The position numbers and the translations under genes were made by a program. The notes under the pieces were generated by a model, which was not told where the DNA came from, made no database searches, and saw only the letters and a list, made by a program, of their open reading frames with translations. From NCBI GenBank assembly GCA_963715985.1, contig CAVQSP010000012.1:837-64836 (forward strand): 64,000 nucleotides of DNA, given 5' to 3'. Source of the stretch: an uncultured Thermoleophilia bacterium. Lineage in GTDB: Bacteria; Actinomycetota; Thermoleophilia; UBA2241. How positions within the stretch are numbered: the stretch's first letter is position 1; every line of letters starts with the position of its first letter. Shown here one piece after another: positions 1 to 41,006 of the stretch.

Positions 1-817
1 CCCGGCTGCCGCAGCTGGTGCACGACCAGGCCAAGCAGCGACTCGGCGGTGCCCTGGGCGATGTGGCCGGCCACCGTGATGGGCGCATGCAGCAGGGGGA
101 GGCGTCGCGGCGTCCAGGCACGGCACCCCGTGGTCCGCGCACAGTAGGAGCTTGGCCACCGCCTCGCGCGGGTGGCGCAGCGTAGCGCGCTGGTGGTTTC
201 TCCGTACACTGTGAAGTACGGCTTGGCGCGCAGTTCCTCGGCGCCGCCGCGCAGCTCGCAGGCGATCTTCCACATCACCTCGAGATCGGCGGCGTTATCG
301 GCCACCGCCGCCAGTGGTTTGGTGGTGTTGGCCACCATCGCGCGGAAGCTCTCGAGCAGCGAGCGGTGGGGGTCGACCTCGCCCGGATGCGCGTAGGCCA
401 TCACGAAGTCGATGTAGGGCAGGGCGTCGCAGAGGCGCGCCGCCATCACGCTGTCGTCGAGCCGCGTCGGCCGGTGCTCGCGGGTCTCCAGGTCGTAGAC
501 GCTGGTCACGGCCGAGCCGTTGCCGAAGCAGCTGGTGCAGCTGCCCAGCGACATGGCCGGCTCGCCGTCGCGGTCGAAGACCTCGATCACGGCCAGCGCC
601 GTGGCACGGGCGCGCTCCACGAGCTCTCGCGGCACGCGCACCAGGTCGGGCTCGACGACGTCGCAGCCGGCGGTCCGGAGCAGATCCAGGGCCTCCGGAT
701 GGTGCACGCGCTGTCCACCGTGGCCATGATCTCGAGAGCGCTCTCGTAGATTGCGCTCTTGTCGTCGTCAGCGAGGTAGCTCAGATGACCCACGCGAGCA
801 TACGAGTGCGAGTGCAA
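1..817 (-). pseudogene. MttB-superfamily (non-Pyl trimethylamine methyltransferase family) corrinoid-dependent methyltransferase, paralog 1. The 5' part is present, the gene runs off the left edge, and there are at least 3 frame changes.
   Basis: Hand translation of the minus strand gives ...GHLSYLADDDKSAIYESALEIMATV | GQRVHHPEALDLLRTAGCDVV..FGNGSAVTSVYDLETREHRP..LCDALPYIDFVMAYAHPGEVDPH..NTTKPL..LRAKPYFTVYGETTSAL | ..HPREAVAKLLLCADHGVP | ..APITVAGHIAQGTAESLLGLVVHQL. This is collinear with the intact paralog 39552..41006. The frame changes near 715, 175 and 95. The start is uncertain (TTG 817 or GTG 793). Confidence 0.75.
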
Positions 818-893
818 TGTCGGCACAGGCAGTCCTGTCGGTTGATCGCTTCTGCGCCCCTCGGCCCTTCCGGATTCGGGCACGCGGCCAACC

Positions 894-2016
894 TCAAGAG
901 TGATGGTAGCGTTTGTCGCGCCGGTACAGCTCCGCCGCGCGCTCCACGGCGTCAGAGTTGAGCTCGATCCCTGGCCCCGGCCCTCGATGACCCCCAGCTT
1001 GCCCCTTACTGGCGTGAGGTCGGGCGCCGTGACGAGGTCCTCGACGAGCAGCTGATGCATGATCTGGTTGCCGTCGGTGAGGTTGGCCGTACGCAGGCCG
1101 AGGTGGTGCTGGGCGGCGTCGGTGATGCCCGAGACGCCCTGGCGGGAGGCAGACCGCCACGCCGGCGGCCTCGGCGATGGCGGCGGCCTTGCCGAAGGCC
1201 AACAGGCCGCCGGTTTCGTGCGGCGAGAGGACGACAACGTCGGCGGCGCGCTGCCGGCAGACTTCGTACACGTCGGCCGGCGTGAACACCGACTGGTCGG
1301 CGGCGATCGGCACGCTCACGGCCTCCCTGACCTGGCGCAGGGCGGCGATGCTCTGGAAGGGCGTGGGCTGCTCGACGAACTCGGGTCGGAGGCGCCAGCC
1401 GGCCGATCATGTTGATGGCCTCGGCGACGCTCCAGGCGCAGTTCGCGTCGAGCCGCAGGCGGCGGCGGCCGATCGCTTCGCGTACGGCTGCCGTGTTCCT
1501 CAGGTCGGCGGCTTCACCGCGCCCGACCTTCAGGTAGATGACGCCGTACCCCGCCTCGGCAAGGTCGCGCGCATCTTCGGCGAGTTCTTCCGCGGTGTCG
1601 CCCTGGACGAAGCCGAAGTAGTCGACCTCCTCGCGCACCGGGCCGCCGAGGAGCCGGTACACCGGCCAGCCGGCAGCCTTGCCGAGGATGTCCCAGAGCG
1701 CCATCTCGAGGCCGGCCAGAACGAAGTGGCGTGCCACGGCGTGTGCTCGAAGCCGCCGAGATACCGTGCCCCGGTGATTAGCTGTTCAATGTCGAAGACC
1801 GGCTGGCCGACGAATAGCGGCGTCACCCCCTCCAGCGCGGCGACCGTGCCCTCCGCCGGGAACGCGGAGACCGAATCGCCGACGCCGACGAGGCCGTCGT
1901 CGGTCTCGACCTCGACGAGGACGACGGCCGCCGCGTGGTCCACACGACCGGCCCAGTGATACGGCTCCTTGAAGGCCAAGCGCCAGGAACTGTGTCGGGA
2001 TGCGGGCGATCTTCAT
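894..2016 (-). pseudogene. Enolase-superfamily enzyme (mandelate racemase / muconate lactonizing enzyme family), at least 4 frame changes
   Basis: Pieces in four ORF-track frames join collinearly. They are MKIARIPTQ..(1786..2121 frame); KEPYHWAGRVDHAAAVVLVEVETDDGLVGVGDS (1530..1979); LAGLEMALWDILGKAAGWPVYRLLGG..VIYLKVGRGEAADL..LRLDANCAWS (1006..1737); PIAADQSVFTPADVYEVCRQRAADVVVLSPHETGGL (894..1319); ITDAAQHHLGLRTANLT..(587..1237 frame); and the tail GIELNSDAVERAAELYRR* (894 frame). The ATG at 2016 follows a GGAAGGATGA-type RBS. Confidence 0.75.
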
Positions 2017-2157: not shown

Positions 2158-2169
2158 GTGTCAATGCCG

Positions 2170-3595: not shown

Positions 3596-3726
3596 CGGTG
3601 TCCGATTGCCGACCGAGTTGCTCGCGAAGACACGCCCGACGCAGAGCTTGGTGCGGGGTTAACGCCGTCAGGGGTGGGCCTGAGCACTCAGGCAGCGCCT
3701 CACAGCCAATGAAGGGATGGTTCGCT

Positions 3727-5317
3727 ATGGCCCACGTAAGGAGAGGTGCTCGCAGCGACCTCTGGATGCTGTCCGGTCCCGTGCTGCTTCTGGCGGTGCT
3801 ATTCCTGGCCGGCTCGGGAACGCTGGCACTGAAGCTGGCAGCAGTCCGACGGCGGGTGCTGCCGTCCAGAGGGGTGGTGTCCTGAACATTGGCACGCAAA
3901 GCGGCAACGGTCAGTTCGACCCAGCCGTGTATGCGGGGGCCTACGGCGACGAGCAACTGCAGCGTCAGGTATTGGAGAAGCTTGTCGATGTGGATGCCCA
4001 GTTGAACCCCGTCCCCGTTCTGGCCACCAAGTGGTCATCTGCTGACGGCAAGGTCTGGAAGTTCACCCTGCGTGACGGAGTTACCTTCACCAACGGCGAA
4101 GCGTTCACCTCGGCTGATGTCATCTATACGATGGATCGCTTGCGCAGCAAGAAACTGGGCTCGGTCATGGCCGACGTCTACGCCAACGTGGACCGAGTGG
4201 TGGCCGACGACCCGACGCATGTGACGTTCTACCTGAAGTCGGTCGATTCCGAATTCCCCGCTACTCTCACCGACATGCGCACGCTGATGCTCTGCAAGAG
4301 CGTCAAGGATCCGATGAAGCAGCTCGTCGGGACTGGCCCGTTCATGCTCGAGTCGTTCGCCGCCGAGGACCGTGCGGTGCTGAAAGCCAACCCCAACTAC
4401 TGGGGTAGGGATGCCGACGGCAACAGGCTTCCATATCTCGATGGCGTCAGCTTCATCTACTCACCAGACATGACCGGACAGGTCGAAGGTCTCCAGGGGG
4501 GGTCACTCGACTGGGTTGGAGGCCTCAGTTCCGAGCTTCGGCAGACCGTGGAGGGCAGCCCGGGGATCAAGGTGTTCAGCATCGACTCCAACAACGTCTT
4601 CACGCTGCAAATCCGCTGTGACCAGGGGCCGGGCAAGGACGTCGCCTTCCGTCAGGCGCTGATGGCCGGGACCGATCGTCAAGCTCTTGTCGACCTCGTT
4701 GCCCCAGGCGATGCATCTCCCGGCAACGGAACAATCGTCGGCCCTGCCTACGCCGCCAACTACCTGCAGGAGTCTGTTCCATTCGATCCTGCCAAGGCCA
4801 AGGAGCTCCTCGCGAGTGCAGGGTACGCGAATGGCCTGGAGATCAAGCTGGTGGTTCAGACTCTTGACCCCTGGCCGGCTATTGCCACCGCTTGGCAGGC
4901 CCAGATGAAGACGATCGGGGTTAGCGTCTCCATCTCACAGGTCCCCTCCGACGTCTTCTGGGCCAATACAGGCACGAACAGCTGGACGCAAGTGGAGTTC
5001 TGCGGGGTGGACTGGTCCACGCGGGTGCCGCCCAGTGTCTATTTCCAGCTCGGGTTCATCACCGACTCGCCGTGGAACATGATGCGCTGGAGCGACCCCG
5101 CGTTCGACCAGATTGTGAAGCAGCTGCCTCAGCAACTCGATGAAACCAAGCGGGCTGACTCTATAAGCAGGCGCAAGTGATTCTGCAGGATCAAGCGCCC
5201 ATAGTGAACTTGATGATCTCGAAGACCGTGGCGGCCCAGTCTAGCAGGCTCGACGGCATCACTCTGCTTCCCGATTGGGCGGCGACCAAGTTCGACACCG
5301 CGCACTTCACGCAGTGA
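3727..5317 (+). pseudogene. ABC transporter substrate-binding protein, family 5 (Opp/Dpp/Nik type), 2 frame changes
   Basis: The signal-peptide-like N-terminus MAHVRRGARSDLWMLSGPVLLLAVLFLAG is in the 3580..3885 frame. The main body is in the 3717..5180 frame (VLNIGTQ..KWSSADGKVWKFTLRDGVTFTNGEAFTSADV..GTGPFMLESF..). The C-terminal tail LYKQAQVILQDQAPIVNLMISKTVAAQSSRLDGITLLPDWAATKFDTAHFTQ* is in a third frame and ends at 5317. The shifts are near 3815 and 5157. Confidence 0.8.
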
Positions 5318-5666
5318 TCCTGCGGACCTCAGTAGCCCGCGGGGCCCGTTGCGGGCCCCGCGGGCACGGTCTGCTGTTGACAAGCGAGAATCCGCAGGCT
5401 GGTCAACCTGGTCCACGACTGATCGCTCGGGTACTTGAGCGCCGAGTCAGGAAGATCACGAGGGGGGAAGCGACATGACTGGAGACGATCTTCTCCCCAG
5501 CGAAGTGGGCGCCGGCGGCCTGGAGGACGAGGCGCTCTGGCAGCCTGGCCCCGACGAGGAGCCTGAGAGGCAGCCGGAGGCTCTGGACGAAGCAGCCCAG
5601 ATCTCGCTGAGGGCCGCAGAGGAACAAGGTGCAGCGCCTGCTCCCTCGGCCCGCCAAGCCCCCAAG

Positions 5667-6503
5667 ATGCGGACCCTCTACTGGCGGCGCCTGAAGAAGC
5701 GGCCGGCGGCCCTCTTCGGCCTCACCATCTTCCTCATCTTCCTCGTCCTGGCCATCATCGGCCCGTGGATAGCGCCATATGACTACACTGCCCAGGACGC
5801 AGCCCTGCGGATCAAACCGCCCTCGCTCGCACATCCATTCGGCACCGACCGGTTCGGACGTGACATCCTCTCGCGCATCATCGTGGGTACGCGCAACATC
5901 TTCCTGTTGGGCGGTATCGGCACCGTGCTGGCCGCCTTGATCGGCACCGCCATCGGCCTCGCCTCTGGCTATGCTGGCGGCTGGACCGACGAGGTCGTGA
6001 TGCGCGCGCTCGATGTGCTCTTGTCCTTCCCCTCGCTGCTCCTTGCGCTGGTGCTGCTCAGCACCGTCGGAACGTCGAACAGGAACCTCGTCGTCGTGGT
6101 AGTTGTCCTCTACGTGCCGGTGATTGCCCGCGTGGTGCGCAGCATGGCCCTCGACCTCAAGAACAAGGAGTTCGTCGAGGCCGCGAGGGTGCGCGGCGAG
6201 AAGCGTGGCTACGTGCTCTTCAGAGAGATACTGCCCAATTCGCTGCCACCGCTCTTTGTCGAGACTTCAATGCGCTTCGCCTACTCGATCTTCCTTGTTG
6301 CGAGCCTCGGCTTCCTGGGCCTCGGTGTGCAGCCGCCCTCGCCCGACTGGGGCCTGCAGATCAATGAAGCGCGCAGCTTCTTCTCGATCGCGCCCTGGGT
6401 GCTGCTCTTTCCGGCCGGCACCATAGCCCTGCTGGTGATCGCCACCCACCTGATGAGCGACGGCCTGCGCCAGGTCATGCTCCCCGGAGGGGGGCGCGGG
6501 TGA
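5667..6503 (+). CDS. ABC transporter permease (DppC/OppC type)
   Basis: ORF 5475..6503. The homologous part starts at MRTLYWRRLKKRPAALFGLTIFLIFLVLAIIGPWIAPYD. The upstream 64 aa are acidic and low-complexity, so ATG 5667 is preferred. It is multi-pass hydrophobic and its stop overlaps the next start (6500/6503). Confidence 0.85.
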   Translation: MRTLYWRRLKKRPAALFGLTIFLIFLVLAIIGPWIAPYDYTAQDAALRIKPPSLAHPFGTDRFGRDILSRIIVGTRNIFLLGGIGTVLAALIGTAIGLASGYAGGWTDEVVMRALDVLLSFPSLLLALVLLSTVGTSNRNLVVVVVVLYVPVIARVVRSMALDLKNKEFVEAARVRGEKRGYVLFREILPNSLPPLFVETSMRFAYSIFLVASLGFLGLGVQPPSPDWGLQINEARSFFSIAPWVLLFPAGTIALLVIATHLMSDGLRQVMLPGGGRG

Positions 6504-8594
6504 ATCCCTCGGCCCGCCCCGTCTTCGAAGTCGAGGGCCTCTCCATCGACTACGAATCCGAATCCGGTCTCTTGCCGGCAGTCCGCAACGCCTCACTGAC
6601 CGTCTGCGAGCACGAAAGCTTCGGCATCGTCGGCGAGTCGGGCTCCGGCAAGTCGACCTTGGCAATGGGCGCCATCTGCTACCTTGCCTCAAACGGGCGA
6701 GTCAGGGAAGGCAGCGTGCGCTTGGACGGGGTCGAACTGCTCAGCCTGCCGAAGAAGCAGCTGCGCGAGCTGTGGGGTGACCGTATCGCTGTCGTGTATC
6801 AAAGCCCCTTGAGCGCGCTGAATCCCTCGATCCAGATCGGGCGGCAGCTGGCCGAAGTGGCAGGCAAGCACCTCGGGATGGGCCGCGGCGCGGCGTGGGA
6901 GCGCGCGGTGGAGATGCTCACCAAGGTCACCATGCCCGACGCCGAGGAGGTCATGCGCCGCTACCCACACCAGCTTTCTGGCGGCATGCTGCAACGCTGC
7001 GTGATCGCCATGGCCCTCATGACCGACCCGTCGCTGCTGATCATGGACGAGCCCACGACCGCTTTGGACGTGACGACGCAGGCGGTGGTGCTAGACCTGG
7101 TGGCCGAACTCAAACGCGAATTCAACTCGGCCATCCTCTACATCACCCACGACTTGGGAGTGATCGCCAGAATCTGCCGACCGCGTTGGAGTGATGTACG
7201 CGGGTGAGTTTGTGGAGCAGGCATCGTTGCGTGAGCTCTTCAAGCGCCCGCGCCATCCGTACACTCTCGACCTGTTGGGCTGCGTGCCCAGATTCGAGAC
7301 CAATCCGCAGAAGCGCAGCCTCGTCACCATCCCCGGCTCCATCCCGCACCTTGACGAGCTGCCGGCAGGTTGCATCTTCGCGCCCCGCTGCAGCTTCGCT
7401 GAAGAGACCTGCCGCGCCGCTCGGCCCCCGCTCGTTGCGCTCGGAGCAACGCATTCAAGCGCCTGTCGGCGCTGGAAGGTGGTGCCCGATCCGCTGGAGT
7501 ACATCTGTGCAGCCAGTGAGGCGCTCGACCTACTGGAGCCCTCTTGCGACGTTGATGAGATCCTTCTTGAAGCCCGCGAGATCAAGACGCATTTCAAAGG
7601 GCCGGCCAAGGGGATTCTTCCTGGGCGACGCCTACGCAAGACGATTCGTGCAGTCGACGGAGCTGACCTCACCCTGTGCAAGGGCCAAACGCTGGGCATC
7701 GTTGGCGAGTCCGGCTCGGGCAAGACGACCATAGCCCGCGCGATCATCGGTCTCACTCCTGCCACCAAAGGCGAGATTCGTCTGCACGGACAAGTACTGG
7801 CTCCCTCTACGCAAGGACGCCCACGAAGCGTACTCAGAGAGATCCAGATGGTGTTCCAGAACCCTGACGCATCTTTGAACCCCACGCGTAGCATCGGCGA
7901 CGCGATCGCCCGGCCCCTGTTGATGCTTGGGAGGGTCTCACGCAAGGAAGCGGCGGCGCGAACCAGAGAATTGCTGCGCGCGGTCAGTCTGCCAGAGCAC
8001 TACTCGGCCCGTCTGCCTCTCGAGCTCTCGGGCGGTGAGAAGCAGCGAGTAGCCATCGCACGAGCGTTTGCTGCTGAGCCGGAGCTAGTCCTTTGCGATG
8101 AGCCGATCTCCTCGCTGGATGTCTCGGTGCAAGGCTCCCTCATGAACCTGCTCATGCGGCTGCAGATCGAACAGCACACCTCGTATGTATTCATCTCGCA
8201 CGACCTGTCTGCGGTTCAGCACCTGTCCGATCAAATCGCCGTCGTGTACTTGGGCAAGATCATGGAGATCGGCAATGCGATCACCGTGCTGTCCCCGCCG
8301 TTCCACCCGTATACGGAGGCACTCCTTTCCGCCGTACCGGTCGCGGACCCTGATATCGCACAAGAAGCCATACGCCTGGTCGGCTCGGTACCAAGCGCAA
8401 TGGATGTGCCTGTCGGCTGCCGCTTCCACCCGCGGTGCCCACGCTTCATCGGCGAACTGTGTGTGAACCAGGAACCGCCCTGGCGCGAGGGAGAGGCCGG
8501 ACACCGCATCTCCTGCCACATATCTCTGGACGAGCTGACGGCGCTGCAAGCCGAGACGCTGAAGATCCCTGCCGGGCGGGGTGATTGCGAGTGA
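6500..8594 (+). pseudogene. ABC transporter ATP-binding protein with two fused ATPase domains (DppD-DppF-like fusion), 1 frame change
   Basis: There are two Walker A motifs (GESGSGKST, GESGSGKTT), two LSGG signatures ([16 protein letters not shown]) and two Walker B motifs ([22 protein letters not shown]). ORFs 6500..7207 and 7191..8594 join as HDLGVIARIC|DRVGVMYAGEFVEQ. One extra base is visible in tgcCgaccgc near 7175. Confidence 0.85.
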
Positions 8595-22198: not shown

Positions 22199-22199
22199 G

Positions 22200-22549: not shown

Positions 22550-24219
<1,670 letters not shown>

Positions 24220-27867: not shown

Positions 27868-28179
27868 GTACGTGTCCGTCACCTGGCTCCCGTGCTCCGC
27901 GGGGACCGGCTGCGGCGACGACCCGCAAGGGCGCGCGCGTGGTCCCGATTGCACAGCATGAAAGCAGCGGCGCCGGGCACGCGCAAGGCCCGCGGGCGCC
28001 GCGTCTTGGATGCTGGACGGTGTACGAGCGGCGGCCGGCAGGCCGCCGTCCTGGGAGCGCACTTTGCAGCGCGCCGCCGCGCCCGCTATCCTGAGCCGCA
28101 CGTGGCCCTTGGAGCGGTGCGTCTCGCGAGCCGCCACGAGGGCCGGCCGTGAGCCGTCGCGCGCGAGGGAGTCCCAGAC

Positions 28180-31872: not shown

Positions 31873-32837
31873 CGCAGTCCCGTCCGCAGCCGCGGGCTGA
31901 TGAGGATGGTGAGGATGTCGGCGATCAGATTGAGCACCACGTACACCGCGGCGATGAGCAGCACGAGCGCCTGCACCACCGGCATGTCACGGTTGGCCAC
32001 CGCGTCCACCAGCGCCGAGCCGATGCCGGGAAAGCCGAAGAGGTACTCCACGGTGACGATGCCGCCGGCCAGCCAGGCGATGTTGATGGCGATCACCTGG
32101 ATGGTGGGGACGATGGCGTTGGGCAGGGCGTGGTGCCACAGCACGCGCGACTCCTTGAGGCCCTTGAGGCGCGCCATCATCACGTACTCGCTCTCCAGCA
32201 CTTCGATGGTGGAGGCGCGCAACATGCGGCTCACGTAAGGGATCACGGCGAGGATCAGCGTGACCACCGGGAGGATGAAGAGGTCCATCTGGCCGCTGAG
32301 CGGCGCCCGCGAGTCCACGTTGGAGACCGAGGGCAGCCAGCTGAACACCGTGGTCGCAAAGATCAGGACCAGGACGATGCCGATCACGAACTCGGGCAGC
32401 GCCGCGAGGCTCAGGTTGGTGATGTTCATGGCGTTGTCGAACTTGGAGTCTCGCCACACGGCACTGAAGGCCCCGATGAGGATGGAGATGGGGATGCTGA
32501 ACAGCGCCGCCAGCGACACGAGGATGGCCGAGTTGATGACGCGCTGCTTGAGCAGCTCGGTGACCTTGGCGCCGCCGCCGACGAGGGAGTTGCCGAGGTC
32601 GCCGCGCACCACGTCGCCGAGCCAGCCCGTGTACTGCGAGACGACCGGCTTGTCCAGGCCTAGCTCCTTGCGCAGCGCCTCGTAGCGCACCTTGTCGGCG
32701 GAGTCCTTGCCGAGGATGGCCTTGGCCGCGTCGCCGGGCAGCGCCTGGGTGGCGAAGAAGACCACCACGGAGACGAGGAACAGCGTCAGGATCCCCAGGC
32801 CGAGGCGGATGAGCAGGAGTTTGAGCAGAGGGGGCAC
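31869..32837 (-). CDS. ABC transporter permease (DppB/OppB type)
   Basis: Intact 322-aa ORF: LLKLLLIRLGLGILTLFLVSVVVFFATQALPGD..EYVMMARLKGLKESRVLWHHALPNAIVPT. Confidence 0.9.
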   Translation of the reverse strand: MPPLLKLLLIRLGLGILTLFLVSVVVFFATQALPGDAAKAILGKDSADKVRYEALRKELGLDKPVVSQYTGWLGDVVRGDLGNSLVGGGAKVTELLKQRVINSAILVSLAALFSIPISILIGAFSAVWRDSKFDNAMNITNLSLAALPEFVIGIVLVLIFATTVFSWLPSVSNVDSRAPLSGQMDLFILPVVTLILAVIPYVSRMLRASTIEVLESEYVMMARLKGLKESRVLWHHALPNAIVPTIQVIAINIAWLAGGIVTVEYLFGFPGIGSALVDAVANRDMPVVQALVLLIAAVYVVLNLIADILTILISPRLRTGLR

Positions 32838-32931
32838 TAGATGATCCTGGGTGAGAGCGGTGGGCGCCGGGCGCCCCGGCCGAGAGGCCGGGGCGCCCGG
32901 TCACACCGGGAACAGCCGTCAGACGGCTTGC

Positions 32932-34593
32932 TCAACCGAAGTAGGCCAAACGATACCGCGCGTTGCTGGCGCAGGAGCCGAGGCCCGAGTAGTCGGGCAC
33001 CATGCCCATGACCGTCGGGGCCATCGCGTCCACCTGATTGTCGAAGGCGTAGACGATGTAGGCGCCCTCGTTGTACTCGATGGTGGCGGCCTGCGTGATC
33101 AGGTCGTTGCGGGCGGCGTCGTCGACCGTCTTGTAGGCCTCTTTGACGAGATTCATGTACTCCTGGTTGGTCGGCGCCCAGTGGGTCTCGTCGTAGAGCG
33201 CGCCGGGCATGGTGCCCATGCCGGTCTGGGCCAGGTACCCGCGGGTGCCCCAGTTGTCCATGGCGAAGCCCCACTTGAGGTACTGGTCGCCCCAGAACAC
33301 GTCGCCGGTGACGTTGTCCACCTTGACGGTGACGCCGGCGGCCTGCGCCTGCTGCGCGAACACCGTGGCCGCGGAGGGGGCGTTGTTGCTGACCGAGGTC
33401 GACGTGACGAGCTTGACCGTCATGTTCTCCTGGCCGGCCTGCTTGAGCAGCGACATGGCCTGCTCCAGATCCTGCTCGCGCTGCGGCAGGTCCTTGGGAT
33501 AGCCGGGGTCGAACGGCCCGTACATGTCGTTGCCGAGCCACTGCAGGCCGTCGGCGCCCTGGGCGATCATCTGCGGGCGGTCGACGATGAGGCGGAAGGC
33601 CTGGCGCACGCGCACGTCGTCGAACGGCTTGACGTCCACGTTCATCGTGAAGGGGATCCACGAGCCGGTCTTGGCTTCGAGCAGCACGTTGCCCGCGCCG
33701 GTGGCGATCTCGCGCTGCGCACCGGGGATCATGTTGACGTAGTCGACCGCGCCGCCGAGCAGGGCGTTCATCTGTGCCGTGGTGTCGGCGAACTCGATGA
33801 TGGAGAGCTGGTCGACGTATGCGCCGCCGTCCTGGCGCCAGTAGTTCTCGTTGCGGGCCATGACGCACTGCACGCCCGGCTGGAAGTCGCCCGGGGCCGC
33901 GAGCTTGAACGGGCCCGTGCCGATGACGCCCTCGCCGCCCTTGGGGTCGTAGCCCACCGGGACGACGGCCGCGCTGTAGGTGGCCAGCGCCTCCTTGAAG
34001 ATCGCGTTGGCCTCTTCGAGGTTGAACTGCACCGTGAGGTCGTCGATCTTCTTGGTGCCGCCCGGCGCGAGGCCGCGCAGCTGCGCCGCGGCGAGGCCGG
34101 GGCTCTTGGGGTTCATGATCCGCTCGAAGCTGAAGACCACGGCGTCGGCGTTCACCGGCGAGCCGTCGTGGAACACCAGGTCCGGCTTGAGCTTGATCGT
34201 GTATTGCGTGCCGTCCGCATTGGGCTCGAGGGACTCCGCGAGCGCCATCCCGAGCACGCCCTCGTTGCTGTACTCGAGCAGCGAGTCGTACAGGTTGAAG
34301 CGCATGTCCATGGACTGCATGGTGTAGGCGGTGGCGTGCGCGTCCAGGTCCTCCTTGGCGGAGCCCTGGCCGGCGGCCACGCGCAGGTGGCCGCCCATCA
34401 CCGGCGTGCCGGCGGCGGCAGACGACGAAGCCGCCGGGCTCGCGCTGGAACTGGAGCTGCTGCTGGAGCCGCACGCCGCGGCGGTCGTGCCGAGCGCCGC
34501 GACCGCCCCGACCGCGGCTGCGCCCTGCAGGACCTGGCGCCGAGTGATCTCCTTGGACAAGAATCCCAGATCTTCGCTGTCTCGTGTGCTCAT
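32932..34593 (-). CDS. ABC transporter substrate-binding lipoprotein, family 5, with a Tat-type signal
   Basis: ATG 34593 follows AAGGGGGAG. The N-terminus is MSTRDSEDLGFLSKEITRRQVLQGAAAVGAVAALGTTAAAC-GSSSSSSSSASP.., which shows a twin-arginine motif, a lipobox Cys and a Ser-rich linker. The body is typical SBP_bac_5 (FHDGSPVNADAVVFSFER..GTGPFKL..). Confidence 0.9.
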   Translation of the reverse strand: MSTRDSEDLGFLSKEITRRQVLQGAAAVGAVAALGTTAAACGSSSSSSSSASPAASSSAAAGTPVMGGHLRVAAGQGSAKEDLDAHATAYTMQSMDMRFNLYDSLLEYSNEGVLGMALAESLEPNADGTQYTIKLKPDLVFHDGSPVNADAVVFSFERIMNPKSPGLAAAQLRGLAPGGTKKIDDLTVQFNLEEANAIFKEALATYSAAVVPVGYDPKGGEGVIGTGPFKLAAPGDFQPGVQCVMARNENYWRQDGGAYVDQLSIIEFADTTAQMNALLGGAVDYVNMIPGAQREIATGAGNVLLEAKTGSWIPFTMNVDVKPFDDVRVRQAFRLIVDRPQMIAQGADGLQWLGNDMYGPFDPGYPKDLPQREQDLEQAMSLLKQAGQENMTVKLVTSTSVSNNAPSAATVFAQQAQAAGVTVKVDNVTGDVFWGDQYLKWGFAMDNWGTRGYLAQTGMGTMPGALYDETHWAPTNQEYMNLVKEAYKTVDDAARNDLITQAATIEYNEGAYIVYAFDNQVDAMAPTVMGMVPDYSGLGSCASNARYRLAYFG

Positions 34594-34826
34594 ATCCGCT
34601 CCCCCTTGTGCATGACAGTCATCGGTCGAATGCTGCGGCGGCCAGAACGAGAGTGCCGGCGAAGGAAACGGAGCGCCCACGCCCCCCACGTGGTACACGA
34701 GGACGGGACCGCCCTTCTTGCCGTATCGCGCATCATACGCGGATTCGTTGCGCCTTGGGACCCGCGAAGGGGCCCGCGGTCCAGGATGTCGGACACGTTT
34801 TGCGGCCCGACGGGCGCGTGAGGCGC

Positions 34827-35673
34827 TCAGCGCCCGGCCCAGAGCTCCGCCGCCGTGAGGCCGAGCTCGTCCTCCACGGCGGCGCGGTAGGCGGCGATGG
34901 CGCGGCGGGTGACGGGGCCGGGTGGGGCGTCGAACACCCGGCCCTCGATGGCCGCGACCGCCTGGACCTCGCGGCCCGCGCCGCCCAGGAACGCTTCGGC
35001 GGCGGCGAGCGCGTCGCCGGTGCGGCACACGCGCTCGTCCACGTCCAGGTGCCGCAGCATCAAGCGCCGGGTGATGGAGTCCAGGATGCCCTCCGTGAGT
35101 GGCGGCGTGCACAGGTCACCCTCCGGGGTGACCCAGAAGAACGCCGCCTGCTGCACCTCCATCACGCGACCGTCCGGCGTCGTGAGCAGCGCCTCACTGA
35201 AGCCGCGCTCCTCGGCCATCCGCCGGGCCAGCATGTTGCCGGCGTAGGCGAGGCTCTTGGAGCCGCCGAGCACGAGCCTGGGCACGTCGGTGACGAAGGC
35301 CAACCGCACCGGCGGCCAGTCGCCGGTGGGCTCCAGGAACACGATGCGCCGGCCGCCCCGCGTGAGCACGATGCGCAGGCCGGCGGAGACTGGTCCGGCC
35401 CATGCGAACACGGCGGCGATCTCCGCCTCGCAGCCGTTCGCGAGGGCAGGACAGCCGCAGCCGGCCGCACGTCCGCTCCAGGCGGTCCAGGTGCTCGCCG
35501 AGCGTGAACGGCCGGCCCAGGTAGCAGCGGATGTACTCGAAGGCGCCGTCGCCGCGCAGCAGGCCGTCGTCGTAGAGCGGCACCGTGGCCGTGGCCGCGT
35601 CGCAGAGCACACCGTCCACCGATGCCGGCATGCGCACACCGCCGGGCCCGAGAGGGGCGGCGTCACCCGGCAT
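34827..35673 (-). pseudogene. Class IV (branched-chain / D-amino-acid) aminotransferase, 1 frame change
   Basis: The N-terminal part is in frame 35194..35673 (..VPLYDDGLLRGDGAFEYIRCYLGRPFTLGEHLDRLERT). The C-terminal part is in frame 34827..35666 (..LRIVLTRGG..GGSKSLAYAGNMLARRMAEERGFSEALLTTPDGRVMEVQQAAFFWV..TPPLTEGILDSITR). The shift is near 35450. Confidence 0.8.
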
Positions 35674-37798
35674 CAGCGCCCGGCTCGACCTTCTCCACGC
35701 GCACCTCGACGGACTTCATCAGCGGGAACCCGCTCACGGGGTCGAAGCGGTCGTCGTGCGTCACCAGATTGATGTTGGCCTGCGCCCAGCCGTGCGTCAC
35801 CTGCAGGCTGCCGCGGCGGATCTCGTTGGGCGCCATGACCTTGACCGGCACGTCCACGGACGCCGATGCGCGATGTGATCCTCACGAGGTCGCCGTCAGC
35901 CACCTTCAGCGAGGCGGCGTCGTCCGGGTGCATCTCCACCTCGGGGCCGGGGATGGCGGTGAGAAAGCGTGGGATGTTGCGGAACCTGCTGTGCATGTAC
36001 AGCAGCTTGCGCGCCCCCGTGATGAGGACGAAGGGGAACTCCGGGTCGGGCGACTCCAGGTACGCGGGCGAGCGGTACACCGGCAGCTCGTCGAAGCCCC
36101 AGCCCGCCGAGGTACGCCGACACGAACTCGATCCTGCCCGAGGGCGTACCGAAGGTGAGCTCGTCCTGCTCGCGCTCGCCGCCCGTGCCCGCCTCGCCGC
36201 CTCCCTCGCCCGCGCCGGCAGCGTCGCTCGCGGCGCCCGCGCCGGCGTACACGACGCCCTCGGGATGCGCCGCCAGGTCCTCGTAGGTGAGCCCCGACGA
36301 CTCGAGCAGCCAGCGGTTGAGCGCGGTCTCGTCCTCCCAGGGGAAGAAGTCGGCGGCGCCCAGGCGCGCGGCCAGGTCGCGCCAGAACTCGTACTCGCCC
36401 TGCACGTCCGGCAGGCTGAGGACCTGGTTGGTGAGGGTGATGACCTGGTGCTTGGCGTGCGCGTGCAGCTCGGTGCGCTCGAGGAACGAGGCGGCCGGCA
36501 GCACGTAGTCCGCCAGGGCGGCCGTCTCCGTCATGAACAGGTCGCGGACCACGAGCAGGTCGAGGGCCTCGAACGCCTCGCGGATGCGCGTGGAGTTGGC
36601 GTTGGTCACCACCGGGTTGGCGCCGGTGACGATCATCGCCCGCAGCGGGTAGGGGTCGTCGTGAAGGATGGCGTCCACCGCACTCATCGTGTGGCACTCC
36701 TGGCGCAGGTCGTAGAGCACGGGGAAGCGCTCCGCGCCGATGGGGCCCAGCTCGCGGAGCGGGAGCTCGTCGTACACGGTGAGCTCGCGCAGCGCCGGCG
36801 CCGCCTTGAAGCGCGTGCCGCCGGCTTGGCCGATGGTGCCCAGCAGCGCGTCGAGCATGGCCACCGCGCGGATGTTGTTGACGCCGTTCTCGTGGTGCTC
36901 GAGACCGTTGCCGGCGTACAGAGCCACGCGCGGGGCGGCGGCGGCCATGGCGCGGGCCATCGCCCGCACGGTGGCCGCGTCCACGCCCGTCTCGCGCTCT
37001 ACCACCTCGGGGGTGAAGGCCTTGGCGTACTCGGCCGACCTGCGGGAAGCCGAGCGTGTATCTGGCCACGAACTCCTTGTCGTAGGCGCCGCTCTCGATC
37101 AGCAGGTGGACGATGCCCCACGCCAGGGCGCCGTCGGTGCCGGGGCGCACCGCCGCGTGCAGGTCGGCGCGCCGCGCCATGGCCGAGAGGCGCGGGTCCA
37201 CCACGATGAGGGTGGCGCCTTTGCGGCGCGCGTCGCTGACGTAGCTGGTCATGTTGGGGTGCGCGTAGGGCAGGTTGGCGCCCCAGATCAGCACGCACTC
37301 GGCGTTCTCCAGGTCCGGCGTGGGCCAGCCGCCGTCCACCAGCGTGAAGCCCGCGTACCGGGCCGCGAAGCACTGCGAGTCGTTGGAGAAGTAGTTGGGG
37401 CTGCCGATGGCGTGGATGAAGCGCCGCGCCAGCGTCTCCTGCTGGCCGAAGCCGATGGCCTCGCCCTTCCACACGCTGAGGCTGCGGAGACCGTACTGCT
37501 CGCCGATCGCCACGAGGCGCGCGGCGATCTCGTCGAGCGCCTGCGCCAGCGGGATCTCCTCCCAGCCGCCTTCGACGCGCTTGAGCGGCGCGAGCAGGCG
37601 GTCCGGGTGATAGACCATGTCGACCGCGGCGCGCGCCTTGACGCACAGGCGGCCGCGGTTCCAGGCGTGGTGCTCGTTGGCGGTGATGTCGACGATGCGC
37701 CCGTCCTCCAGGTGCACCTCGATGCCGCAGCGGTCGTCGCACATGCGGCAGAGGGTGCGCACGGTCGTGCGTTCGGCGGCCACGTCAGCGCTCCCCAC
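35663..37798 (-). pseudogene. Molybdopterin (bis-PGD) oxidoreductase catalytic subunit, DMSO-reductase/formate-dehydrogenase superfamily, at least 3 frame changes
   Basis: The N-terminal [4Fe-4S] motif is CRMCDDRCGIEV..(27)..C, followed by ..WGANLPYAHPN..ATLIVVDPR (35906..37798). It continues ..YAGNGLEHHENGVNN..VTGANPVVTNAN..DLLVVRDLFMTETAALADYVLPAASFLE (35896..37005); ..FPFVLITGARKLLYMHSRFRN..EVEMHPDDAASLKVADGDLVRI (35673..36080); and ..VTHGWAQANINLVTHDDRFDPVSGFPLMKSVEVRVEKV* (35663..35857). Confidence 0.8.
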
Positions 37799-38270
37799 GG
37801 CCCGGACGCGCGAGGCGCCGCAAGCTGATGTCCAGCGCCTCGCGGCGCGCGTCGGCGGCCTCGTCGGCGTCTACGAACTGCAGCGCCCCCGAGGTGCAGA
37901 AGCGCACGCAGTCGGGGTCGCCGCCGCAGAGGTCGCACTTGCGGCTCACACCCAGCTCGCCGTCGAAGTGGATGTTGCCCATGGGGCAGGCGAGCAGGCA
38001 CATCTTGCAGCCGGCGCAGTGGTCGCGGTCGATCTCCACGGCGCCCGTGCTCTCGTCGCGGCTGATGGCGCCGGCCGGGCACACCTCCAGGCACCAGGCC
38101 TCGGAGCAGTGCATGCAGGTGAGCGGGATGCAGGCGTGGTCCTCGGCGTAGAAGTTCACGCGGATGAGCGACGCCGAGCGCGCGAAGTCGCCGCTCTGGC
38201 GAAAGGCGCAGGCGTACTCGCAGTCGCGGCAGGCCACGCACAGGTCGGGATCGGCGACGACGATGCGCAC
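37785..38270 (-). CDS. 4Fe-4S dicluster electron-transfer protein (DmsB/HybA-like beta subunit)
   Basis: Intact 161-aa ORF with four Cys clusters (CVACRDCEYAC, CMHCSEAWCLEVCP, CAGCKMCLLACP, CDLCGGDPDCVRFC). It overlaps the Mo-enzyme start. Confidence 0.88.
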   Translation of the reverse strand: MRIVVADPDLCVACRDCEYACAFRQSGDFARSASLIRVNFYAEDHACIPLTCMHCSEAWCLEVCPAGAISRDESTGAVEIDRDHCAGCKMCLLACPMGNIHFDGELGVSRKCDLCGGDPDCVRFCTSGALQFVDADEAADARREALDISLRRLARPGRGER

Positions 38271-38273
38271 GAC

Positions 38274-39549
38274 TCAGCCTCCTCTCGCAGTGCCGGCCAG
38301 TCCCGCCGCCCGCAGGTCGCGCCGGCGGGCCGGGCTCGCCAGGTCTCTTCCCTCGATGAACGAAAGCAACTCGGGCAGCGCCCGTCGCCAGCGCACGTAG
38401 GGGCGCAGGCGGCCGAGCACCACGGCGCCCTCGGTGCCGCCGAGGGCGACGGCGCCGGCCGGCACGCCGCCGCGGCTCACCAGCTTGAAGTACTCGACGC
38501 CGGCGACGTCGCGCAGCAGCGTGACGTCGTCGCCGTCCTCTTCCACGAAACGACCGAGCGAGGCCACAGTCAAGCCGAACATCTCCGTGACGTTCATGCT
38601 GAGGCTGCCGCGGTACGTGACGCCGGCGCCGGCGAGGTTGGCGCCGGCCACCTTGCCCTGCTCCACCGCCGTGGGCCACAGCGCGTGGATCTCCGGCGGT
38701 CCGCCGGCGGCCGTGGGCCCGCGCGTCACGTCGCCGGCCGCGTACACGCCGGGGACCGACGTCTGCATGGTGGCGTCCACGGGGATGCCGGGCGCGCCCG
38801 GCTCGAGGGCCTGCTCCAGCAGCTCGTCGTTGGGGCGTGCGCCCGTGGCGACGATGACGGCGTCCACGGTGAACGGGTCGAGGCCGCCGGCGCAGACGCG
38901 CACGGCGCCGCCCTCGTCCTCCAGGGCCTCCGTGCTGCGTGCCCGTGTGGATGGGCACGCCGTAGCTCTCGATGCGCTCGTGGAGCAGGCGCGCGGCCGG
39001 AGCGTCCAGCACGCGCGGCATGATGCGCCGGTCGAGCTCGACGACGGTCACCTCCAGGCCGCGGTAGCGCGCCGCCCACGCGGCCTGCAGCGCCACGAAC
39101 CCTGAACCGAGCACGAGCGCCCGCGCCCCGGGCCGCAGCAGCGGGTCGAGGCGCACGGCGTCGGCGAGGGTCCAGAGGTGGTGGACGGCGGGGTGGTCGA
39201 GCCCGGGTATCGGGGGCCGCGCAGGCCGCGAGCCGGTGGCCAGCAGCAGGCTGTCGAAGGCCAGACGGCGCCCGCCGGCCAGCGCCAGCGTGCGGGCGCC
39301 CACATCGAGGCCGTCGACGCGCACCCCGGAGACGAGGTCGGCGCCCATGCGCGAGTAGTACTCGGGGCCGCGGATCACGAGGCCGTCACGCGACACCTTG
39401 CCGCGCAGGAAGTACGGCAGCAGCACGCGGGAGTACGCCGGTCCGGGCTCCTCGCTGATCAGCGTGACCGCGGCGTCGCGCTCGTGGCGGCGGAAGCTCT
39501 CGAGCGCGCTCAGCGCGGCCGCGCTGTTGCCGACGATGGCGAGGTGCAC
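38274..39549 (-). pseudogene. FAD/NAD(P)-dependent pyridine-nucleotide-disulfide-family oxidoreductase, 1 frame change
   Basis: GTG 39549 lies 2 nt after the MttB7 stop. VHLAIVGNSAAALSALE is the dinucleotide fold and ALVLGSGFVALQAAW is a second Rossmann fold (37288..41076 frame). It then continues in ORF 38274..38903 (..VIVATGARPN..VPGVYAAGDVT..). The shift is near 38930. Confidence 0.8.
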
Positions 39550-39551
39550 CG

Positions 39552-41006
39552 TCAGCGCCCCTCGCCGCCCGCGAAGCCGGCCACCAGTTCGTCCGCGCGG
39601 GCGGCCACGTCCGCCGGCAGCGGCGGGACCTCGTGCGTGGCGAGCAGCTCGGCGGCCTTGCGCCGCGCCTTGGCGGCGAGGTCGAGGCCGCCGCCGGCCA
39701 GCCAGTTCTCGCGGCCGTCCCGGTTGAGGATCGTGGGGCGCCACTGCACCTCTCTCATGTGGCGCCGCGTGTGCTTGCTGCCCATGAAGTGGCCGCCGGG
39801 GCCGGTCTGCGCGATGACGTCCACGGCCAGGGTCTCGGCATCGACCTCCACGCCGCGCAGCAGCCGCCGGTTGGAGGCGATGAACTCGTCCACCATCACG
39901 ATGCTCTCCAGCGAGCCGGTGAGGCCGAAGTCCAGGTAGCCCACGTCGTGGGCCAGGTTGGAGCCGGCCTGCATGGCCAGCAGCGTCATCTGATTGGCCT
40001 CCATGCCCATCTGCGCGTCCAGCACCTGGCTGTCGCTGGTCCCTGCGTTCCCCCAGTTGGGCAGGTCCAGCCACTTGGCCATCTCCACGGCACACATGTA
40101 GCCCATCTGGTAGCCGAGGTCGTTGTAGCTGGACTGGGCCGTGGCGATGTCCAGCACGGCCGAGCCGATGCCGAAGAGGAACGGCGCGCCCGGGACGCGC
40201 AGCTGGTGCATCACGAGGCCGAACAGGCACTCCGCGATGCCCTGCGCCGTGTGCCCCGCCACGGTGATGGGCGCCGTGGCCCCCGCCAGCGGCGCCGGCG
40301 AGTAGTTGGTCGGCACGCCGGCGTCGGCGCAGAGCAGCAGCTTCTCCACGCTGTCCGGGGGGTGCACGAGCGGGCTGGTGGGCTCGTTGTACATGATGAA
40401 GTACGGCTTCTCCCGCAACTCGTCTGCGCCGCCGCGCAGCGCCCGCGCGATCTCGATCATCACGGCCAGGTCGCGCGCGTTCTCGGCCGTCATCACCAGC
40501 GGCTTGGTGGTGTTCTGCAGCATCGCGAGGAAGCTCACCAGGTACGCCCTGTGCGGGTCCTCGTCGGTGGGGTGGGCCGAGCTCATCACGAAGTCGATGT
40601 CCGGCAGCGCGTCGCACAGGCGGGCCGCGCGGCGCACGTCCTCGAGCACGCTGGGCCGGTGCTCCCCGGTCTCGAGGTCGTAGGTGGACATGAGGTCGGA
40701 GCCGGTGCCGAAGTAGCTGTTGTAGCCGCCCAGCTCCATGGCCGGCTCGCCCGCGCGGTCGTACACGTCGATCACGGACGGCGCGGTGCCGCGCGCCTGC
40801 TCCACGAGCTCCCGCGGGATGAGGATGCGGTCCTCCGTGGTCAGCGTGCAGCCCGCCTCGAGCAGCATCGCTTTGGCTTCGTCGTGGTGGACCTGCATGC
40901 CGACGGCGCCGAGGATCTCGAGGACGGCCTCGTAGATGTCGAGCTTGGCCTGTTCGCTGAGGAAGCTCAAGTGGCCGATGCGAGATGCGTTGCGAAGGGT
41001 CTTCAC
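39552..41006 (-). CDS. MttB-superfamily methyltransferase, paralog 7 (long class, intact)
   Basis: Intact 484-aa ORF MKTLRNASRIGHLSFLSEQAKLDIYEAVLEILGAVGMQVHHDEA..APITVAGHTAQGIAECLFGLVMHQL..GPGGHFMGSKHTRRH.. It was used as the reference for the broken paralogs. Confidence 0.9.
   Translation of the reverse strand: MKTLRNASRIGHLSFLSEQAKLDIYEAVLEILGAVGMQVHHDEAKAMLLEAGCTLTTEDRILIPRELVEQARGTAPSVIDVYDRAGEPAMELGGYNSYFGTGSDLMSTYDLETGEHRPSVLEDVRRAARLCDALPDIDFVMSSAHPTDEDPHRAYLVSFLAMLQNTTKPLVMTAENARDLAVMIEIARALRGGADELREKPYFIMYNEPTSPLVHPPDSVEKLLLCADAGVPTNYSPAPLAGATAPITVAGHTAQGIAECLFGLVMHQLRVPGAPFLFGIGSAVLDIATAQSSYNDLGYQMGYMCAVEMAKWLDLPNWGNAGTSDSQVLDAQMGMEANQMTLLAMQAGSNLAHDVGYLDFGLTGSLESIVMVDEFIASNRRLLRGVEVDAETLAVDVIAQTGPGGHFMGSKHTRRHMREVQWRPTILNRDGRENWLAGGGLDLAAKARRKAAELLATHEVPPLPADVAARADELVAGFAGGEGR

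Follow-up and report, generated by a model that had tools for sequence, protein, structure and literature searches.

We analysed a stretch of 64,000 nucleotides from an uncultured Thermoleophilia bacterium (assembly GCA_963715985.1, contig CAVQSP010000012.1, positions 837 to 64,836), hereafter called the window, which holds seven genes of the MttB superfamily of methyltransferases (c1 to c7) together with the gene of one corrinoid protein. The most informative of these genes is c6, which lies with the corrinoid gene at the head of a string of histidine-utilisation (hut) genes. Its relatives lie next to genes of urocanase or of the histidine ammonia-lyase (HAL) family in two phyla, and c6 has Glu at the position of the Arg that binds the carboxylate of the substrate in the glycine betaine methyltransferase MtgB. 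These results suggest that the hut-linked MttB clade acts on methylated histidine, perhaps hercynine (histidine betaine). Our best explanation of the whole, which we regard as fairly probable, is that the window is chromosomal DNA carrying a catabolic island for methylated amines, in which substrate-specific methyltransferases (MT1) of the non-pyrrolysine type would mostly share one corrinoid carrier and c6 would demethylate N-methylated histidine.

The window has a G+C content of about 70%, and the nearest homologues of its genes were found in metagenome-assembled genomes (MAGs) of uncultured Thermoleophilia (Actinomycetota). The c6 protein is 82-93% identical to proteins of such MAGs, the nearest relative being that of locus L005 (93%; related loci fetched for comparison are labelled L and a number). 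At the DNA level the window is syntenic with L005 and L021 at 80-89% identity.

c6 and the corrinoid gene lie in a histidine-utilisation operon

On the minus strand, from position 26777 down to 9660, the genes follow each other with short gaps in the order c6, corrinoid protein, hutU, 2-oxoacid:ferredoxin oxidoreductase, sucC, sucD, hutH, c5, c4, c3 and c2 (Table 1). An earlier note on this DNA had described the MttB paralogues and missed this most informative feature of their context, namely that c6, the corrinoid gene and c5 to c2 are embedded in a histidine-utilisation operon. Both HutH and HutU were identified at the equivalog level, as expected of a hut pathway. The beta subunit of the oxidoreductase scored best, though below the cut-off, with the model of 2-oxoglutarate:ferredoxin oxidoreductase.

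We ruled out that the lyases of the window are trimethylammonia-lyases of the ergothionase or HBTL type: HutH carries the Ala-Ser-Gly triad of the 4-methylideneimidazole-5-one (MIO) cofactor and passes the hutH cut-off, and a second HAL-family lyase of the window, lyase2, carries Ala-Cys-Gly. Likewise, hutU was ruled out as a thiourocanate hydratase, as its product passes the hutU model but not the thiourocanate models.

Linkage of the c6 clade to hut genes in related genomes

An alignment of the c6 family was scanned against one genome per species, which gave 79 loci. Within 10 kb of MttB homologues with at least 44.5% identity to c6, a gene of the urocanase or HAL family was found in 37 of 45 loci, and below that identity in none of 32. 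Restricting the former count to loci with at least 4 kb on both sides gave 24 of 27. The hut-linked loci of the c6 type come from Actinomycetota and Desulfobacterota, and in these two phyla at least six different gene arrangements were seen, complete operons with HutI, FTCD, HAL, urocanase and MttB included.

In the Thermoleophilia orthologues, the order is MttB, corrinoid protein, HutU, 2-oxoacid:ferredoxin oxidoreductase, SucCD and HutH. An actinomycete MAG has MttB, corrinoid protein, HAL, IclR, urocanase, HutI, FTCD_C, FTCD and SBP5, and a deltaproteobacterial MAG has GntR, FTCD_C, FTCD, HutI, HAL, urocanase and MttB. At a Thermoleophilia paralogue locus we found MttB, molybdenum oxidoreductase, MttB, urocanase, HutI, FTCD and MttB. 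The c6-clade operons of L084, L085 and L086 include genes for HutI and FTCD. Finally, L042 to L045, L058 and L087 carry a lyase2 orthologue (79-88% identity) that flanks a c6-like gene (45-47%) and a corrinoid gene, with IclR and c5-, c4- and c3-type genes nearby in varying order. The triad of these lyase2 orthologues is Ala-Cys-Gly (ACG) in L044, L045 and L058, and Ala-Ser-Gly (ASG) in L042 and L043.

Of the 26 HAL-family lyases encoded next to c6-type genes in the related loci, 24 have retained a triad of the MIO type (ASG, SSG or ACG). The two exceptions are found in L002 (13847-15268) and L004 (4316-5596), where a lyase without the MIO triad (motif GSLGAADLAP) follows hutU in an operon orthologous to that of c6. 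Its best match in the PDB is the ergothionase of Treponema denticola (6s7j), and it has Ile at the position of the thiolate-binding Lys384, which resembles the logic by which the hercynine lyase of Shewanella woodyi was identified. This lyase may thus be a trimethylammonia-lyase of the hercynine type.

Urocanase paralogues beside c6-clade MttB genes were observed in L084 (8228-9964), L085 (14826-16541) and L086 (5497-7212). They score 637-643 bits with the hutU model and 634-651 bits with that of S-methyl-thiourocanate hydratase, compared to 964 and 744 bits for HutU of the window. These scores suggest either a modified urocanate as substrate or a divergent subfamily. Full-text searching of the literature gave no paper tying MttB to urocanate, hercynine, methylhistidine or Thermoleophilia.

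Three sequence classes with different predicted pockets

The seven MttB copies had been located before, and tblastn with the four uninterrupted ones (c2, c3, c6 and c7) found exactly these seven regions, all on the minus strand. Each of the four gave a full-length match to the MttB-superfamily profile PF06253 (E = 1e-67 to 1e-103; 227-345 bits against a cut-off of 25). Across their frame changes, c1, c4 and c5 are 54-67% identical to c7 in tblastn. For c1 this value is 54-56%, and its closest relatives, at about 70%, are the c4 orthologues of L043 and L058. Orthologues of c3 were found in L042, L043 and L058 (62-73%), as were intact orthologues of c5 (82-84% at the amino acid level). The AlphaFold 2 model of c6 (pLDDT 92.6) gave TM scores of 0.93 to 7xcl (MttB), 0.91 to 9yce and 2qne (both MtgB) and 0.89 to 4yyc (Sinorhizobium meliloti), so that c6 is predicted to adopt the TIM-barrel fold of MttB and MtgB.

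The four intact copies have no internal stop and hence no in-frame TAG, in agreement with the earlier assignment to the non-pyrrolysine type. The position of Pyl334 of Methanosarcina barkeri MttB is taken by Ile in c2, Val in c3, Met in c6 and Thr in c7 and the repaired c4 and c5. With the equivalog model of pyrrolysine-containing MttB (TIGR02369), the four intact copies score 249-356 bits, below the cut-off of 525.

At least three sequence classes had been proposed, and the identities bear this out. Class B (c1, c4, c5 and c7) shows 54-71% mutual identity and class A (c2 and c3) 43%, whereas values between classes are 22-32%. The divergence of c6 (class C) from both other classes was also confirmed, as it is 22-28% identical to every other copy. 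An N-terminal motif that had been ascribed to the long class, here class B, is approximately right, except that c5 reads RAGRLTYL in place of GHLS. Within class B, c5 and c7 form a GTGSD subtype, and c1 and c4 a GNGSAVT subtype. Genes of the two subtypes form an adjacent pair in L042 and L058, and in L043 both are present but apart. No copy is more than 33% identical to the solved members MtgB (9yce, 2qne), the S. meliloti protein 4yyc and MttB 7xcl.

In MtgB, the glycine betaine site has been defined by experiment: Tyr97 and Phe356 make cation-pi contacts, Arg312 forms a salt bridge with the carboxylate and His348 completes the set (PMC13080624). Arg312 is kept in MtcB, MtpB, MthB and MtyB, where it salt-bridges the acid group of the substrate (PMC13080624); these four proteins were left out of our tree, and their Arg312 conservation was taken from that publication. 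We read the equivalent residues, and the Pyl334 position, from an alignment of 125 sequences. At the positions of Tyr97, Arg312, His348 and Phe356, class A has Ser, Arg, Gln and Tyr. Class B (c4, c5 and c7) has Ser, Trp, His and Gly; c1 lacks the region from Arg312 onward. Class C has Val, Glu, Tyr and Ser. The Arg312 equivalent is thus present in c2 and c3, and replaced by Trp in c4, c5 and c7 and by Glu in c6.

The residue pattern of each class is conserved in the matching clade of relatives. Glu at the Arg312 position is common to the Thermoleophilia orthologues of c6 and to Desulfobacterota homologues (51-55% identity), and in other subclades this position is taken by Trp, Leu or Ser/Ala/Thr. 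The copies are thus not members of one characterised clade with identical pocket residues; the alignment gives three pocket patterns. As far as sequence alignment can tell, none of the classes has the residue set of MtgB, and no copy is predicted to be a glycine betaine enzyme. Because the classes differ at the position that binds the carboxylate in MtgB, they would be expected to take different substrates or different methylation states.

One corrinoid protein for several methyltransferases

The corrinoid protein consists of a B12-binding_2 cap and a Rossmann-type B12-binding domain with the DxHxxG motif. Its best matches among the NCBIfam models are MtgC, MtbC and TIGR02370, each below the cut-off. 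That it is the only B12-binding protein of the 64 kb had been noted before and was confirmed, as tblastn at E<10 and a six-frame scan for DxHxxG gave no second copy. The ratio of MttB to corrinoid genes in the window is therefore 7:1. The gap between the corrinoid gene and hutU (24220-24665) is 446 nt long, compared to 5-100 nt in most relatives, and contains no convincing open reading frame (ORF) or Rfam match.

The earlier note had proposed that several methylated-amine substrates are funnelled onto this one carrier. In favour of this are the non-pyrrolysine type of the copies, the presence of at least three classes that differ in pocket residues, the 7:1 ratio, and the five MttB genes that are co-directional with the carrier gene. 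Moreover, 42 MttB-like genes stand against 20 corrinoid genes in the Thermoleophilia loci overall. The claim is weakened in that three of the copies are frame-broken and that the window edge cuts c1. Nor is the principle new: in Eubacterium limosum, MtpB, MtcB and MtyB are served by one carrier, MtqC, and a separate cluster holds the genes for MtqA and RamQ (PMC8604678). Since the sharing of a carrier by several enzymes of the MttB family is an established paradigm, the idea is plausible, but not novel. From the MtqC precedent and the excess of MttB genes in the lineage, we infer that the carrier of the window is most likely shared at least by c6, c5, c4, c3 and c2, the MttB genes of the 17-kb string.

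Alternatively, the carrier would serve c6 only, the other MttB proteins would use carriers encoded outside the window, and the 7:1 ratio would be an artefact of where the window was cut. The c6 gene and the corrinoid gene are indeed an invariant adjacent pair in 15 of 15 orthologous loci, additional MttB and corrinoid pairs occur in L002, L003 and L016, c1 runs off the window edge, and c7 and c1 belong to separate gene strings. However, c5, c4, c3 and c2 lie in the co-directional string of the carrier gene. L042, L043 and L058 each have four MttB genes and one carrier gene within about 21 kb (4:1), and L087 has at least five MttB-family calls and one carrier. In addition, several loci with two or three MttB genes have no carrier within 10 kb. 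Together with the lineage-wide excess and the sharing in E. limosum, this makes an exclusive c6 carrier rather unlikely in our view.

The array of c5, c4 and c3 beside one corrinoid gene recurs in L058, and in L043 and L042 the genes are more dispersed. In L087, a c7/c5-type gene, a c6-like gene and one corrinoid gene are followed by MttB-family fragments. The extra divergent pair was observed in L002 (5665-7802), L003 (3828-5986) and L016 (about 5714-7068), with a remnant in L001. Its MttB protein has 501 amino acids, Thr at the Arg312 position and Cys at the Pyl position, and its gene lies between an ABC importer and IclR genes. At the syntenic site of the window (29049-29114) this pair is absent.

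Frame breaks in c1, c4 and c5

Frame interruptions are unusually frequent in the window. Besides c1 (at least three frame changes), c4 (at least five) and c5 (three), they split the MR_MLE gene, the fused ABC ATPase of importer 1, the alpha subunit of the oxidoreductase, the molybdopterin oxidoreductase, Pyr_redox_2, lyase2, PEPCK (near 44340) and an aminotransferase (45.5-46.5 kb).

A codon-level comparison of c5 with its orthologues in L058, L043 and L042 gave exactly three lesions, each a single-base insertion or deletion. Similarly, the break in the alpha subunit is one extra base in CCCGG when compared to five relatives, L009 among them. Neither nonsense substitutions nor larger deletions were seen in these breaks, which are the ones resolved at base level. 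Compared to intact orthologues, dN/dS was 0.26-0.30 for c5 and 0.28-0.34 for c4, and between orthologues it was 0.17-0.30. By this measure, c4 and c5 are under no relaxed selection. Because the lesions are single-base indels and dN/dS resembles that of intact orthologues, single-base errors of the assembly or lesions of very recent origin are the most likely cause of the breaks in c1, c4 and c5, and we do not regard these copies as long-standing pseudogenes.

We also considered partial decay, in which c1, c4, c5 and the broken neighbours (MR_MLE, molybdopterin oxidoreductase, Pyr_redox_2, lyase2, PEPCK and aminotransferase) would be recent pseudogenes of an eroding island and only four MttB enzymes would be made. 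The number of frame changes in the three MttB genes fits this, as does their clustering, with eight breaks in the 2.9 kb of c4 and c5 compared to one in about 18 kb (15.9-34.5 kb). Furthermore, the window has neither the second MttB and corrinoid pair nor the pair of a c6-like gene (45%) and a corrinoid gene that are found in relatives, which would fit loss or rearrangement. On the other hand, all breaks resolved at base level are single-base indels, the dN/dS values of c5 and c4 match those between intact orthologues, and conserved genes such as PEPCK and that of the alpha subunit are also broken. The related long contig L087 has similarly fragmented MttB and lyase calls, as expected of indel-prone long-read assemblies. 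Taken together, we regard decay as somewhat improbable.

The 3' ends of c4 and c5 (12992-13237 and 14454-14699, respectively) are 96% identical over 246 nt, compared to 75-88% elsewhere in the two genes, which is suggestive of gene conversion between the tandem paralogues or of a local collapse of the assembly.

A proposed pathway and its alternatives

In our proposal, each MttB paralogue would act as a substrate-specific MT1 that binds its own methylated nitrogen compound in the TIM-barrel pocket and transfers one methyl group to the Co(I) cofactor of the small corrinoid protein. The methyl-Co(III) carrier would then be unloaded by a methyl-corrinoid:acceptor methyltransferase (MT2), and a reductive activase would keep it active; as in E. 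limosum, the genes of both would lie elsewhere. The substrate of c6 would be an N-methylated histidine, with hercynine and its partly demethylated forms favoured and ring-methylated histidine as the alternative. The carbon skeleton would pass through HutH and HutU to glutamate, and further via 2-oxoglutarate and succinyl-CoA to succinate and ATP.

Hercynine is favoured because the characterised non-pyrrolysine members use quaternary amines and because hut genes are repeatedly accompanied by two to four MttB classes, as would be expected if three methyl groups are removed before a MIO lyase acts. A further reason is the ergothionase-like lyase in one orthologous operon. Ring-methylated histidines have to be taken seriously as an alternative, since imidazole is a good leaving group and an acidic pocket residue could hold the imidazolium; in addition, the importers of the window are of the peptide (Opp/Dpp) type and an M20 peptidase gene adjoins the cluster of L086. 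In its most specific form, the proposal is that the c6 clade, with Glu or another non-Arg residue at the Arg312 position, the class B and A paralogues and one shared corrinoid protein strip the N-methyl groups of hercynine or methylhistidine stepwise, which would yield histidine for the MIO-dependent HutH and HutU. This form is tentative, and we would not call it probable.

Several observations weigh against the explanation as a whole. The substrate assigned to c6 is a prediction from genomic context. A canonical MIO-dependent HutH needs a free alpha-amino group, so that a trimethylated substrate would require three demethylations, and we know of no characterised MttB-family system that performs three. 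A lyase-first route, from hercynine to urocanate and trimethylamine (TMA), would account for the MIO-less lyase of L002 at least as well. The hut pathway is locally incomplete, as HutI, FTCD and HutG were not found in the window by tblastn with HutI, FTCD and an arginase-family protein of L084, L085 and L002. The methyl transfer system is incomplete as well: neither an MT2 methyltransferase nor a RamA/RamQ-type activase was found among the window ORFs scanned with Pfam. Thus, a complete three-component methylamine:tetrahydrofolate (THF) system was not found in the window; the URO-D gene of L086 also has no match there. The corrinoid protein falls below the cut-offs of all named models (176.9 against 215.3 bits for TIGR02370). 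Concerning the carrier, c7 and c1 lie 13-24 kb from its gene in other gene strings, the second MttB and corrinoid pairs beside IclR genes in L002, L003 and L016 demonstrate that one-to-one pairing exists in the lineage, and more carriers may be encoded outside the window. Finally, the frame breaks are far denser in c1, c4 and c5 than between 15.9 and 34.5 kb, which random error explains poorly.

The association with hut genes could also be indirect, if both systems feed the THF one-carbon pool (formimino-THF via FTCD and methyl-THF via the corrinoid protein) or share regulation, and the substrate of c6 would then be unrelated to histidine. The hut operons of L084, L085 and L086 do use the THF-dependent FTCD branch, and some adjacency is expected in genomes rich in MttB paralogues. 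However, the association is specific to the c6 clade, as other MttB clades examined with identical flanks gave no linkage. It survives the rearrangements in two phyla, with MttB directly abutting urocanase or HAL, and the operon of the window type has no FTCD. We therefore consider an indirect association unlikely.

In another reading, to which we give very little credit, a trimethylammonia-lyase would release TMA or a different small methylamine from hercynine, and c6-clade proteins would be pyrrolysine-independent methyltransferases for this amine and not demethylases of the histidine derivative. In its favour, c6 comes closest in sequence (192 bits compared to 120 for MtgB) and fold to the pyrrolysine-type 7xcl, Glu315 in place of the carboxylate-binding Arg would suit a small cation, and the MIO-less lyase of L002 and L004 with Ile at the Lys384 position would provide the TMA, but the MIO-type lyases that dominate beside c6-type genes, and HutH of the window, release ammonia and not TMA, the Desulfobacterota operons carry a complete ammonia-lyase hut pathway with no second lyase within 10 kb, and no non-pyrrolysine family member is known to use TMA (PMC8604678). 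The demethylation of N-methylated histidine by c6 remains the reading that we prefer.

Non-pyrrolysine MttB homologues number in thousands. To our knowledge, no more than about five substrates have been established (glycine betaine, proline betaine, carnitine, gamma-butyrobetaine and phosphocholine), and it was genome or proteome context that led to each new substrate of the family. A clade that lies directly beside urocanase and HAL genes in two phyla, with Arg replaced by Glu, offers a concrete and cheaply testable substrate prediction, namely hercynine or methylhistidine. If correct, it would add a new substrate class to the MttB superfamily and a TMA-free sink for the histidine betaine and ergothioneine pool in soils and sediments, and anaerobic or microaerobic Thermoleophilia and Desulfobacterota would have a new way to consume the ergothioneine precursor. 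These might also be the first MttB-family enzymes that act on tertiary or secondary amines without pyrrolysine, and the locus would illustrate how, in Actinomycetota, a whole set of MT1 paralogues can be served by one carrier. Should the prediction fail, the locus would remain a clear case of MttB paralogues having expanded in an uncultured lineage. What is new here is the hut-linked clade with the exchange of Arg for Glu; the principle of several MT1 proteins on a single carrier was known.

Comparison with known systems

By gene content, the window resembles the MtqC systems of E. limosum, in that several non-pyrrolysine MT1 genes accompany one small corrinoid protein with DxHxxG, which would be shared. 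As in E. limosum, MT2 and activase genes lie away from the MT1 genes, with none in the window. In contrast to this firmicute acetogen, the host is an uncultured high-GC member of the Thermoleophilia, its MttB copies are at most 33% identical to solved members, and the carrier gene belongs to a string that also holds five MT1 genes and the hut genes. Unlike the characterised quaternary-amine members, two of the three window classes (B and C) lack the conserved Arg312.

The copies share fold and family with MtgB of Desulfitobacterium hafniense (2qne, 9yce; PMC13080624). The neighbour-joining tree places c2 and c3 together with MtgB and the S. meliloti homologue 4yyc, and they keep both the carboxylate-binding Arg (Arg298 and Arg299) and an aromatic residue at the Phe356 position. 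They differ from MtgB in overall sequence (31-33% identity), in Ser for Tyr97 and in Gln for His348, and classes B and C differ from it by Trp and Glu, respectively, at Arg312. The pyrrolysine-containing MttB of M. barkeri (7xcl) is the best match of c6 and c7 (188-192 bits; TM score of the c6 model 0.93) and also has a small corrinoid protein as partner. Unlike this enzyme, c6 and c7 have no in-frame UAG, with Met and Thr at the Pyl334 position, and the window has no pyl genes or tRNA-Pyl.

A route for breakdown of hercynine and ergothioneine is known from HBTL of S. woodyi (bioRxiv 10.1101/2025.08.13.670108) and the ergothionase of T. denticola (PDB 6s7j). Like our proposal, it links methylated histidine to urocanate, and the c6-orthologous operon of L002 and L004 has a MIO-less lyase. 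Unlike that route, the lyases of the window keep a MIO-type triad (ASG in HutH, ACG in lyase2), its hutU is canonical, and the methyl groups would be harvested by corrinoid chemistry and not released as TMA.

Other genes of the window

The positions of all features are given in Table 1.

Table 1. Genes of the window, with their positions, strand and supporting matches.
Feature	Position	Strand	Description
c1	3..826	-	class B, GNGSAVT subtype; 3' part cut by window edge; at least 3 frame changes; tblastn in two frames
MR_MLE enolase-superfamily gene	894..1979	-	upstream of c1; at least 3 frames; MR_MLE_N and MR_MLE_C pieces in three ORFs (Pfam)
Opp/Dpp-type ABC importer 1	3717..9535	+	SBP_bac_5 3717-5180; OppC-like permease 5475-6503; fused double ATPase 6500-8594 (frame change near 7200); OppB-like permease 8585-9535; Pfam
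c2	9660..11033	-	intact; class A, Arg298 at MtgB Arg312 position; PF06253 E=7e-85
c3	11547..12926	-	intact; class A, Arg299 at MtgB Arg312 position; PF06253 E=6e-103
c4	12984..14441	-	class B, GNGSAVT subtype; at least 5 frame changes; intact orthologues (~76%) in L058, L043
c5	14445..15899	-	class B, GTGSD subtype; three single-base indels at ~15494, 15431, 14988
hutH, histidine ammonia-lyase	15972..17507	-	PF00221 E=3e-188; TIGR01225 655.6 bits (cut-off 539.15); MIO triad Ala-Ser-Gly, motif GSLGASGDLAP
sucD and sucC, ADP-forming succinate-CoA ligase	17504..19569	-	sucD 17504-18391; sucC 18388-19569; Pfam; sucC NF001913 428.9 bits (cut-off 370)
2-oxoacid:ferredoxin oxidoreductase, four subunits	19573..22549	-	gamma 19573-20133; beta 20126-21040; alpha 21037-22240 (extra base near 21610); delta 22337-22549; Pfam
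hutU, urocanate hydratase	22546..24219	-	TIGR01228 964.1 bits (cut-off 375); below both thiourocanate hydratase cut-offs
Corrinoid (B12-binding) protein	24666..25289	-	207 amino acids; PF02607 81 bits, PF02310 91 bits; DLHDIG at residue 98
c6	25335..26777	-	intact; class C, Glu315 at MtgB Arg312 position, Met320 at Pyl position; PF06253; hut-linked clade
IclR-family regulator	26992..27885	-	directly upstream of c6; Pfam
IclR-family regulator	28180..29049	+	divergent; Pfam
Opp/Dpp-type ABC importer 2	29114..34595	-	fused ATPase 29114-31042; permeases 30925-31872, 31869-32837; SBP_bac_5 with TAT signal 32932 to ~34595; Pfam
Genes downstream of c7	34827..39550	-	class IV aminotransferase 34827-35666; FdhA-like molybdopterin oxidoreductase 35663-37798 (at least 2 frame changes); 4Fe-4S protein 37785-38270; Pyr_redox_2 flavoprotein 38274-39550 (1 frame change); Pfam
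c7	39552..41006	-	intact; class B, Trp318 at MtgB Arg312 position, Thr323 at Pyl position; PF06253 E=1e-79
lyase2, second HAL-family lyase	42150..43711	+	Ala-Cys-Gly for Ala-Ser-Gly, triad at ~42611-42619; one frame change near 42530

The gene order of importer 1 is repeated in L087, where the ATPase is a single fused protein of 710 amino acids. Importer 2 is syntenic with L005 and L021 at 80-85% DNA identity. The pair of IclR regulators also flanks the c6 orthologues in L001, L002 and L005. Both regulators have two HTH_IclR stretches and only a partial IclR_C, and the same unusual architecture was observed in L001 and L002.

A further minus-strand string is headed by c7, followed by the flavoprotein, the 4Fe-4S protein, the FdhA-like oxidoreductase, the class IV aminotransferase and importer 2. 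The FdhA-like oxidoreductase may serve as a formate dehydrogenase in the oxidation of methyl groups, or may reduce N-oxides. In L086, an FdhA-like cytoplasmic molybdopterin oxidoreductase (1667-3763) also adjoins a class B MttB gene. Between c7 and lyase2, from 41238 to about 41960 on the minus strand, lies a gene for a class I SAM methyltransferase with a weak match to CpaM (corrinoid protein-associated methyltransferase; 37 bits against a cut-off of 180). The product of lyase2 scores 500.7 with the hutH equivalog model and narrowly misses its cut-off of 539.

No specific NCBIfam model matched the MR_MLE gene, of which an intact homologue directly follows hutH in L009 (about 20745-21434, plus strand). 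Members of the enolase superfamily include betaine racemases and epimerases. The region of about 1.7 kb from 2000 to 3700 gave no Pfam match in the tested ORFs and no homologue in the 87 fetched loci.

ARAGORN found tRNA-Asp and tRNA-Val but no tRNA-Pyl in the window, and the Rfam search gave two tRNAs only and no cobalamin riboswitch or other RNA. From 42 to 64 kb, Pfam scans gave no components of a methyltransferase system; this part contains lyase2, PEPCK, glycosyltransferases, a two-component system, RpoD, and PIN and integrase remnants. Between 58814 and 62460, a PIN-domain gene, a phage-type integrase in two frames (59315-60476) and tRNA-Val (62386-62460) lie together, which looks like the remnant of an element integrated at a tRNA gene.

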